From Actinomycetes bacterium (lineage in GTDB: Bacteria; Actinomycetota; Acidimicrobiia; Acidimicrobiales; JAMCQF01), in the NCBI GenBank assembly GCA_021851885.1, contig JAJZBS010000004.1:1-61975 (forward strand): a stretch of DNA of 61,975 bases, read 5' to 3'. The stretch's first letter is position 1. The number at the start of each line of letters is the position of its first letter. The notes under the pieces were generated by a model that worked only from the letters and a program-made list of their open reading frames with translations, ran no database searches and was not told the origin of the DNA. A program made the position numbers and the translations under genes. This document shows, piece by piece, positions 1 through 4,828 of this stretch.

Positions 1-179
1 AATCGGTGAAGGTCACCGGCGTGTTCTCCTTTTCGTGCTCTGGCTAGGAACACGCCAAGGTTCACGCCGGTGACCACCCAGATGGTGGATGCCGGATCCG
101 ATTTACACCACGTCAGGGGACTCGATCGGTCAGAGCGTTTTGCGCCGTCGGGCGCCGTCCAGAAAGTGGGCCCCTGGCT
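1..179 (-). mobile_element. End of an unidentified insertion (IS, integrative element or intron) in tRNA-Ile; continues beyond the window
   Basis: Non-tRNA sequence abuts the anticodon loop and carries several inverted repeats (11-23/63-75, 1-6/98-103, 114-119/171-176). No ORF or second end visible. Confidence 0.55.
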
Positions 180-220
180 CATTATCAGTGCTGCGCTCTA
201 ACCGACTGAGCTATAGCCCC
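180..220 (-). tRNA. 5' half of tRNA-Ile(GAU), interrupted just 3' of the anticodon loop
   Basis: Minus strand reads GGGGCTA-TA-GCTC-AGTCGGTTA-GAGC-G-CAGCA-CT-GAT-AA-TG: acceptor 5' strand, D arm, anticodon 5' stem and GAT loop. The expected TGCTG 3' stem becomes TGAGC and no T arm follows. Position after gyrA is the usual actinobacterial tRNA-Ile site. Confidence 0.9.
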
Positions 221-228
221 GCGAGGCT

Positions 229-240
229 TTTACGCTACAC
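229..240 (-). promoter_or_regulatory. Putative extended -10 promoter of tRNA-Ile
   Basis: Minus strand GTGTAGCGT (TG-n-TANNNT; TAGCGT at 232-237) about 11 nt upstream of tRNA G1. Confidence 0.5.
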
Positions 241-318
241 CGTCATACGGGCCGCCTTACCGGGACTCGACGAGGCCGGCAGGCGTCCGAATTGCCGTCC
301 GTGTCGCTAGATACGGCG

Positions 319-4828
<4,510 letters not shown>

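Follow-up and report, generated by a model that had tools for sequence, protein, structure and literature searches.

A tyrosine-integrase island has, most probably, split the tRNA-Ile(GAU) gene downstream of gyrA in its anticodon loop, leaving an orphan 5' half at the old locus and rebuilding the gene at its own far end, that is, with a polarity that mirrors the usual one. We put the probability of this reading at roughly 0.87. The window, by which we mean the whole analyzed stretch of 61,975 nucleotides, is contig C122 of an Acidimicrobiales metagenome-assembled genome (MAG) of 221 contigs, which is 92.8% complete and whose order is also indicated by the names given to homologous proteins; position 1 of the window is the first base of the contig.

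On the minus strand of the window, gyrB (2858..4816) precedes gyrA (319..2880, 853 amino acids, taken from the ORF list), which is the host gene preceding the tRNA-Ile locus. The sequence GGGGCTATAGCTCAGTCGGTTAGAGCGCAGCACTGATAATG (220 to 180), beginning 98 nt past the gyrA stop, corresponds to nucleotides 1–41 of tRNA-Ile(GAU). This orphan fragment (180..220, minus strand) extends from the acceptor arm and the D arm through the 5' strand of the anticodon stem and the loop CTGATAA to two bases in the 3' strand of that stem; the match is perfect from +1 through the anticodon loop. Past nucleotide 41 the window reads AGCCAGG in place of the CTGAGG of the tRNA (in longer context, AGCCAGGGGCCC versus CTGAGGTCG). 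ARAGORN called no tRNA in the whole window. A search of positions 1–400 with Rfam models at E <= 10 returned a single sub-threshold tRNA hit of 14 bits, which attempts to bridge the insert, and no intron, riboswitch or other family.

The surroundings of the orphan half are those of a native gene. A relative from the same family, G002, has recF-gyrB-gyrA and then, 109 nt further on, a whole tRNA-Ile(GAU) gene whose 5' half is identical; since the gyrB-gyrA-tRNA-Ile order is intact there, the orphan half appears to occupy the ancestral chromosomal position of tRNA-Ile. The element GGTGTAGCGT (232..241, minus strand), 12–21 nt upstream of the tRNA +1, was picked out by conservation: in G002, G031, G034 and G036 the tRNA-Ile, whether native or orphan, is preceded at an equal distance by GGTGTAGCCTC. 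It is a candidate -10 region of the host promoter and would still be joined to the orphan half, although scans of the host side for sigma-70 promoters and terminators gave neither a strict consensus match nor a terminator.

The 41-nt tRNA half recurs once elsewhere in the MAG, inside the 2.8-kb contig C102. There the orphan sequence is 100% identical (E 3e-14) to positions 1182–1222, the first 41 nucleotides of an intact tRNA-Ile(GAU) of 76 nt (C102 c1147-1222). According to the genome-wide ARAGORN search this is the sole intact tRNA-Ile(GAU) among the 49 tRNAs of the MAG, and the target gene is regenerated in it as a complete foldable tRNA. Identity between the two copies starts exactly at +1, with wholly different sequences upstream (element-type on C102, host-type at the orphan), and ends after ...GATAATG (...CTGATAATG), so that the identity block of nucleotides 1–41 terminates in the anticodon stem-loop. 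Thus the split at the anticodon loop, which the original prediction had read from the window, is borne out by comparison with the intact gene, and the reconstituted copy that it had named as one way for the cell to survive has been located.

A 416-aa ORF starts 74 nt from the 5' end of the C102 tRNA on the divergent strand. It matches the Phage_integrase profile PF00589 (E 1.7e-18) and the SAM-like N-terminal domains PF14659 and PF13102, and residues R211, K248, H342, R345, H368 and Y378 are invariant in an alignment of 32 sequences (the C102 integrase and 31 homologues). The profile together with these catalytic residues identifies the predicted protein as a tyrosine recombinase. Sigma-70 and terminator scans of the 74-nt spacer between the integrase and the tRNA gave no match; because the rebuilt tRNA is the sole tRNA-Ile(GAU) copy, it is presumably transcribed from this spacer.

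Past the integrase, C102 terminates in the IS repeat with which the window begins. In the other direction, 3' of the tRNA, it leads into C192 (7.8 kb, with tRNA-Leu CAG) and ordinary chromosomal genes: C102:1-353 and C192:1-353 overlap by 353 bp at 99% identity in opposite orientation. The two contigs can be joined through this overlap, which helps to scaffold the locus. The membrane protein gene located 3' of the C102 tRNA has no homologue beside the tRNA-Ile of G002, the relatives being too distant for downstream synteny. The orphan half (C122) and the intact tRNA with the integrase (C102) lie on separate contigs of the MAG; C122 and C102 are likely the two ends of one insertion.

These observations would be explained by an island that entered the tRNA-Ile(GAU) gene behind gyrA through site-specific recombination at its anticodon loop. 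Its attP would carry tRNA nucleotides 1–41, presumably with a promoter, next to the integrase gene, instead of the usual 3' part. The first product, attL, would consist of the host promoter, the orphan 5' half as the core (220 to 180) and then the island arm (179 to 128); the second product, attR on C102, would be the 5' half brought by the island fused to the 3' half of the host, i.e. a rebuilt functional gene. At a later time an IS256-family element would have inserted 52 nt inside the arm, with a second copy beyond the integrase. Among the candidates listed originally was an integrase element that recombines in the anticodon loop, and both the integrase beside the C102 tRNA and the islands of relatives described below speak for it.

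The arm of attL (128..179, minus strand) comprises 52 nt of element DNA beside the core, truncated by the IS, and is recognized by homology to the arm in G031. This genome is the closest relative, with an integrase 83% identical to that of C102 and an IS-free homologous arm. Over 91 aligned nucleotides, covering the tRNA half and the arm, the window is 85% identical to the orphan tRNA-Ile locus of G031, which reads ...GATAATG/AGCTCC...TTCTGGACGGCGCCAGACGGCAAAAAGAGCTCTGAGC TGCAGTGATGTAGACG... (the slash marks the break), the junction GATAATG/AGC being the same in both. Positions 128–179 are single-copy in the MAG, and neither the 52-nt arm nor its IS-free continuation turns up anywhere else in the MAG contigs, from which the island interior is absent.

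The window opens with a repeat cut by the contig end, C102 is no longer than 2.8 kb, and the integrase region is polymorphic and of higher depth in metagenomes. One could therefore suspect an assembly or binning artefact, with C102 coming from another strain or organism and the half tRNA being a chimeric contig end. Four mine-drainage metagenomes were consulted as Logan contigs; these are interrupted in the 41-nt repeat and cannot phase the two ends. One contig from run X1 spans window positions 151–197 without a mismatch; another X1 contig spans positions 98–180, including the joint between the IS and the arm (depth 2.6, in this one run only); and runs X1–X3 contain contigs of 1.3–1.45 kb with a variant arm and the tRNA half but without the IS. 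The exact X1 contig over 151–197 and the variant contigs in X1–X3 show that the orphan junction is not an assembly artefact. As to binning, the depth of the host part of C102 matches that of C122 in all four runs (in X2, 28.1 versus 28.5), and the 99% overlap with C192 and the homologous junction in G031 also run against a foreign origin, so that we regard such an artefact as very unlikely. The IS-free flank in X1–X3 (...TGCAGTGATGTAGACGAGCGACGA) equals the continuation of the G031 arm; therefore, an IS-free version of the island coexists in the samples. For C102 (L008) positions 1230–2400, runs X1–X3 contain many variant integrase contigs, whose summed depth exceeds that of the host sequence beside them; the mine-drainage communities seem to harbor several related islands or alleles of the integrase side by side.

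The remainder of the window end, positions 1..127 (minus strand), is the left end of an IS, very probably of the IS256/Mutator family, that runs off the contig, as seen from repeat copies on other contigs. The original prediction had taken at least 180 nt at the contig end for non-tRNA sequence; the divergence from the tRNA holds, but only positions 128–179 are unique, while 1–127 belong to a multi-copy IS end. Window positions 1–131 recur in the MAG at 99% identity at the end of C102 and at 70–83% on C118, C148 and C109. The C148 copy (70% identical) precedes an ORF matching Transposase_mut (PF00872, E 1.3e-42). The 5' leader of the IS end includes a long hairpin, and the end also bears the ribosome-binding site AAGGAG and, at 16 to 14, a putative GTG start codon of the transposase; within the window the element amounts to this leader and only five transposase codons, and a contig end likewise truncates the 99% copy on C102. 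Three different flanks, those in the window, on C102 and at a third site in metagenome contigs, set the IS terminus at 127/128. It is these repeats that broke the assembly and left the island interior out of the MAG.

The IS leader is predicted to fold strongly (window 1–127, minus strand: MFE -57.3 kcal/mol, z = -4.4), pairing GGUCACCGGCGUG with CACGCCGGUGACC; the putative GTG is buried in this hairpin and AAGGAG is partly paired with CCUU. The candidate promoter of the host tRNA-Ile is directed straight into this IS256 copy. IS10 and IS50 use fold-back inhibition against read-through transcripts, and the leader hairpin of the IS256 element may act likewise.

A gene half next to an IS end could also be the remnant of a decayed duplicate, or the 3' half could have been lost through an IS256-mediated insertion, deletion or inversion, with no integrase involved. 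Two near-identical IS256 ends in inverted orientation do lie near both tRNA copies, and recombination between them could invert or delete DNA. The IS terminus, however, is 52 nt away from the break, and hence the IS appears to be a secondary passenger in the island arm that did not make the tRNA split. Moreover, the arm is homologous to the IS-free arm of G031, IS-free variants occur in the same samples, and at least eight other genomes have their break at just this place, the anticodon stem-loop. Taken with these observations, decay or IS-mediated loss is very unlikely.

A self-splicing group I or group II intron in the anticodon loop, or an insertion of the IS110 or IS3 type, is extremely improbable. 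Group I introns of bacterial tRNAs do typically sit in the anticodon stem-loop, and the motif TAATGAG had been likened to an IS end, but the Rfam search of positions 1–400 at E <= 10 retrieved no intron model, no 3' exon follows, and the DNA beyond the break is island arm. Three of the candidates listed originally are thereby set aside: an IS110/IS1111-like element and an IS3/IS150-like element, since the sole transposase family present is Mutator/IS256, whose end lies at 127/128, 52 nt from the break; and the intron.

The short segment at window positions 121–137 (CTCGATCGGTCAGAGCG) resembles the antisense of a tRNA D arm at 14 of 17 positions. It is composed of 7 nt of the IS end and 10 nt of the arm, and since the IS-free G031 homologue does not have the IS part, the likeness is most likely a coincidence.

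The C102 integrase has more than 1,200 homologues at E < 1e-20. We compared 80 genomic loci of such homologues, all from Acidimicrobiales or Actinomycetota MAGs, and in 69 of the 80 a tRNA gene is located 59–215 nt upstream of the integrase start. Forty five of these 69 loci have the classical orientation, with the 3' end of the tRNA toward the integrase gene; they are mostly Val-CAC, and five are Ile-GAU. In the remaining 24, of mirror orientation, the 5' end of the tRNA points toward the integrase and the genes diverge; Ile-GAU accounts for eleven, and Arg, Thr, Ser, Lys and Met for the others.

An orphan 5' half (nucleotide 1 to about 30–43) was present in all eight mirror-type tRNA-Ile genomes examined. 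In three of the eight it lies on the same contig and strand as the rebuilt gene and upstream of it, the islands between them measuring 8.4, 12.4 and 17 kb. The layout in these relatives is orphan 5' half, island, intact gene and host DNA, with no displaced 3' half. In G031, G033 and G034 the tRNA-Ile gene follows an acyl-CoA thioesterase gene, not gyrA. Complete mirror elements within the fetched flanks were also found at other tRNAs: L074 (Met) has a distal repeat of nucleotides 1–36 and L100 (Arg) one of nucleotides 1–39. The orphan Met half of L074 remains beside the host tRNA-Asn, and in the MAG of the window (G000) tRNA-Asn directly precedes tRNA-Met. This 3.2-kb element (L074:1203-4656) splits a tRNA-Asn/tRNA-Met operon; the distance from tRNA-Asn to the orphan is 96 nt, and the element separates the rebuilt tRNA-Met from the operon promoter.

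Genes of the mirror-type Ile islands in relatives encode HTH_17 excisionase-like proteins, Phage_capsid, Terminase_7, RES toxin and HD/dGTPase-like proteins and extra recombinases. Judging by this gene content, the islands seem to be small phage-related or satellite-like islands; that of G031 has large membrane proteins instead of phage-type genes. Two complete islands of 12–17 kb (L108:1632-13845 and L110:2680-19606) contain a capsid (PF05065) or small terminase (PF25673) gene along with genes for an HTH_17 excisionase-like protein, a RES toxin with its upstream partner, an HD/dGTPase-like protein and a second XerC-like recombinase, a set reminiscent of phage satellites.

The ends of the fragments delimit the site of strand exchange. 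Orphan 5' halves end at ...GATAAT/, ...GATAATG/, ...GATAATGC/ and ...GATAATGCT/, the identity blocks of relatives stopping between nucleotides 36 and 43, and the classical 3' fragment at tRNA-Ile in G036 begins at /TGATAATGCTGA, nucleotide 33. The mirror and classical identity blocks overlap only on TGATAAT, i.e. the anticodon loop, and therefore both polarities exchange strands at the same place. By these alignments, the two types would differ solely in which tRNA half the element carries, and the crossover in the window is placed somewhere in or before the anticodon loop CTGATAA. Some chromosomes (L111:1507-1534, L109/L111 on contig C10 of G036, and G038:C65:40097-40140) harbor a mirror island on the 5' side of tRNA-Ile together with one or two classical 3' fragments (nucleotides 40/42–76) 12–16 kb downstream of it; thus, both polarities have used one gene on one chromosome.

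The G031 arm carries GGAGTTGTAGTCCAAGTTGTAGTCC about 95–125 nt from the core, and the integrase-tRNA spacer of C102 and its clade carries GGAGTTGTAGTCCAGAAGTAGTCC 30–50 nt from the core; the GTTGTAGTCC repeats are common to both. Repeats flanking the core on both sides are the usual look of arm-type integrase sites, and the GTTGTAGTCC repeats are putative sites of this kind, which might double as part of a promoter. The IS lies between the core and these putative sites and probably impairs excision.

In a quick maximum-likelihood tree of 67 integrases, the C102 protein belongs to a clade of nine, all mirror-type and mostly Ile-GAU (SH-aLRT 98). A second mirror-type Ile clade and a classical Ile clade are nested within the classical Val-CAC group. 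On this tree polarity requires at least four changes, a provisional count as some branches are long. We tentatively suggest that polarity may have flipped repeatedly in one Acidimicrobiales integrase family, the two mirror-type tRNA-Ile clades and the classical tRNA-Ile clade all crossing over in the same anticodon loop. Such repeated flips would be a mildly novel observation at the family level; if they are real, the family offers a natural series for studying how attP swaps the carried tRNA half via the symmetry of the anticodon stem, and the same series is suited to asking how attP acquires a promoter.

For annotation, the half tRNA should not be taken for an intron, a misassembly or the loss of an essential gene: it marks the edge of a genomic island, and the working tRNA-Ile sits on a small contig that is easily discarded from a bin. 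An island that replaces the 5' half of a tRNA gene has to provide for its transcription as well. The integrase family, for which our literature search found no published description, is well populated and environmentally widespread, its members coming from Acidimicrobiales of peat, soil and mine drainage. It enlarges the small class of islands replacing the 5' half, and both polarities occur at one target within this one family.

Among systems already described, the arrangement belongs to a known minority class, since Islander counts 159 islands with a 5' tDNA fragment against 3,760 with a displaced 3' fragment, 3,919 in total (PMC4383910); the original prediction was right to call a promoter-proximal orphan 5' half uncommon. 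The configuration filter of that resource explicitly permits a 5' fragment upstream of the tDNA (PMC4383910), and we met this configuration on single contigs in L074, L100, L108, L109 and L110. Apart from these Islander statistics, a full-text literature search yielded no description of integration on the 5' side of tRNA genes. Like the Islander 5'-fragment islands of the anticodon-centred attP class 'A', the island has a tyrosine integrase beside a regenerated tDNA, restores its target, leaves (in relatives) the orphan 5' fragment upstream in the same orientation, and has an identity block that ends in the anticodon loop. It differs from them in coming from an Acidimicrobiales MAG with the two ends on separate contigs and in having an attL arm interrupted by an IS256 element. 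The IS itself resembles other IS256/Mutator elements, as window positions 1–127 match the left ends of copies preceding PF00872 ORFs and are multi-copy and assembly-breaking, but here it is apparently a passenger in the island arm and not what split the tRNA.

In tRNA-dependent lysogeny, as described by Guerrero-Bustamante and Hatfull (2024), the core is about 10 bp, the target gene is left unrepaired, and the phage makes up for the loss with a complete tRNA of its own (PMC10865867). An island of this type, which destroys the tRNA gene and supplies its own complete tRNA, would also leave a broken gene behind; such systems exist in actinobacteriophages (PMC10865867), and the intact tRNA-Ile(GAU) does lie inside or beside element DNA. 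As in that system, an actinobacterial element sits in a tRNA gene and the cell then depends on tRNA sequence borne by the element. Here, however, the common block is 41 nt long and starts exactly at the tRNA +1, so as to rebuild the gene across the junction; there is no orphan 3' half accompanying the intact copy on C102, and the complete islands of relatives have no displaced 3' half. Complementation by an element-borne complete tRNA is thus highly improbable, and we retain the tyrosine-integrase island that rebuilds the gene from its own 5' half.

Mechanistic parallels to this island are found among elements that use the same part of a tRNA gene. Mycobacteriophage L5 in tRNA-Gly and HP1 in tRNA-Leu are classical anticodon-loop integrators; elements of this type carry the 3' part of the tRNA and leave a 3' fragment, and the host promoter keeps driving the gene. 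Like them, the island recombines in a 7-nt anticodon loop that a symmetric stem encloses, has arm repeats (putative here) to either side in attP and keeps its integrase gene next to attP. In contrast to L5 and HP1, it supplies the 5' part of the tRNA and must supply transcription too. The island is ordinary in mechanism and uncommon in polarity.
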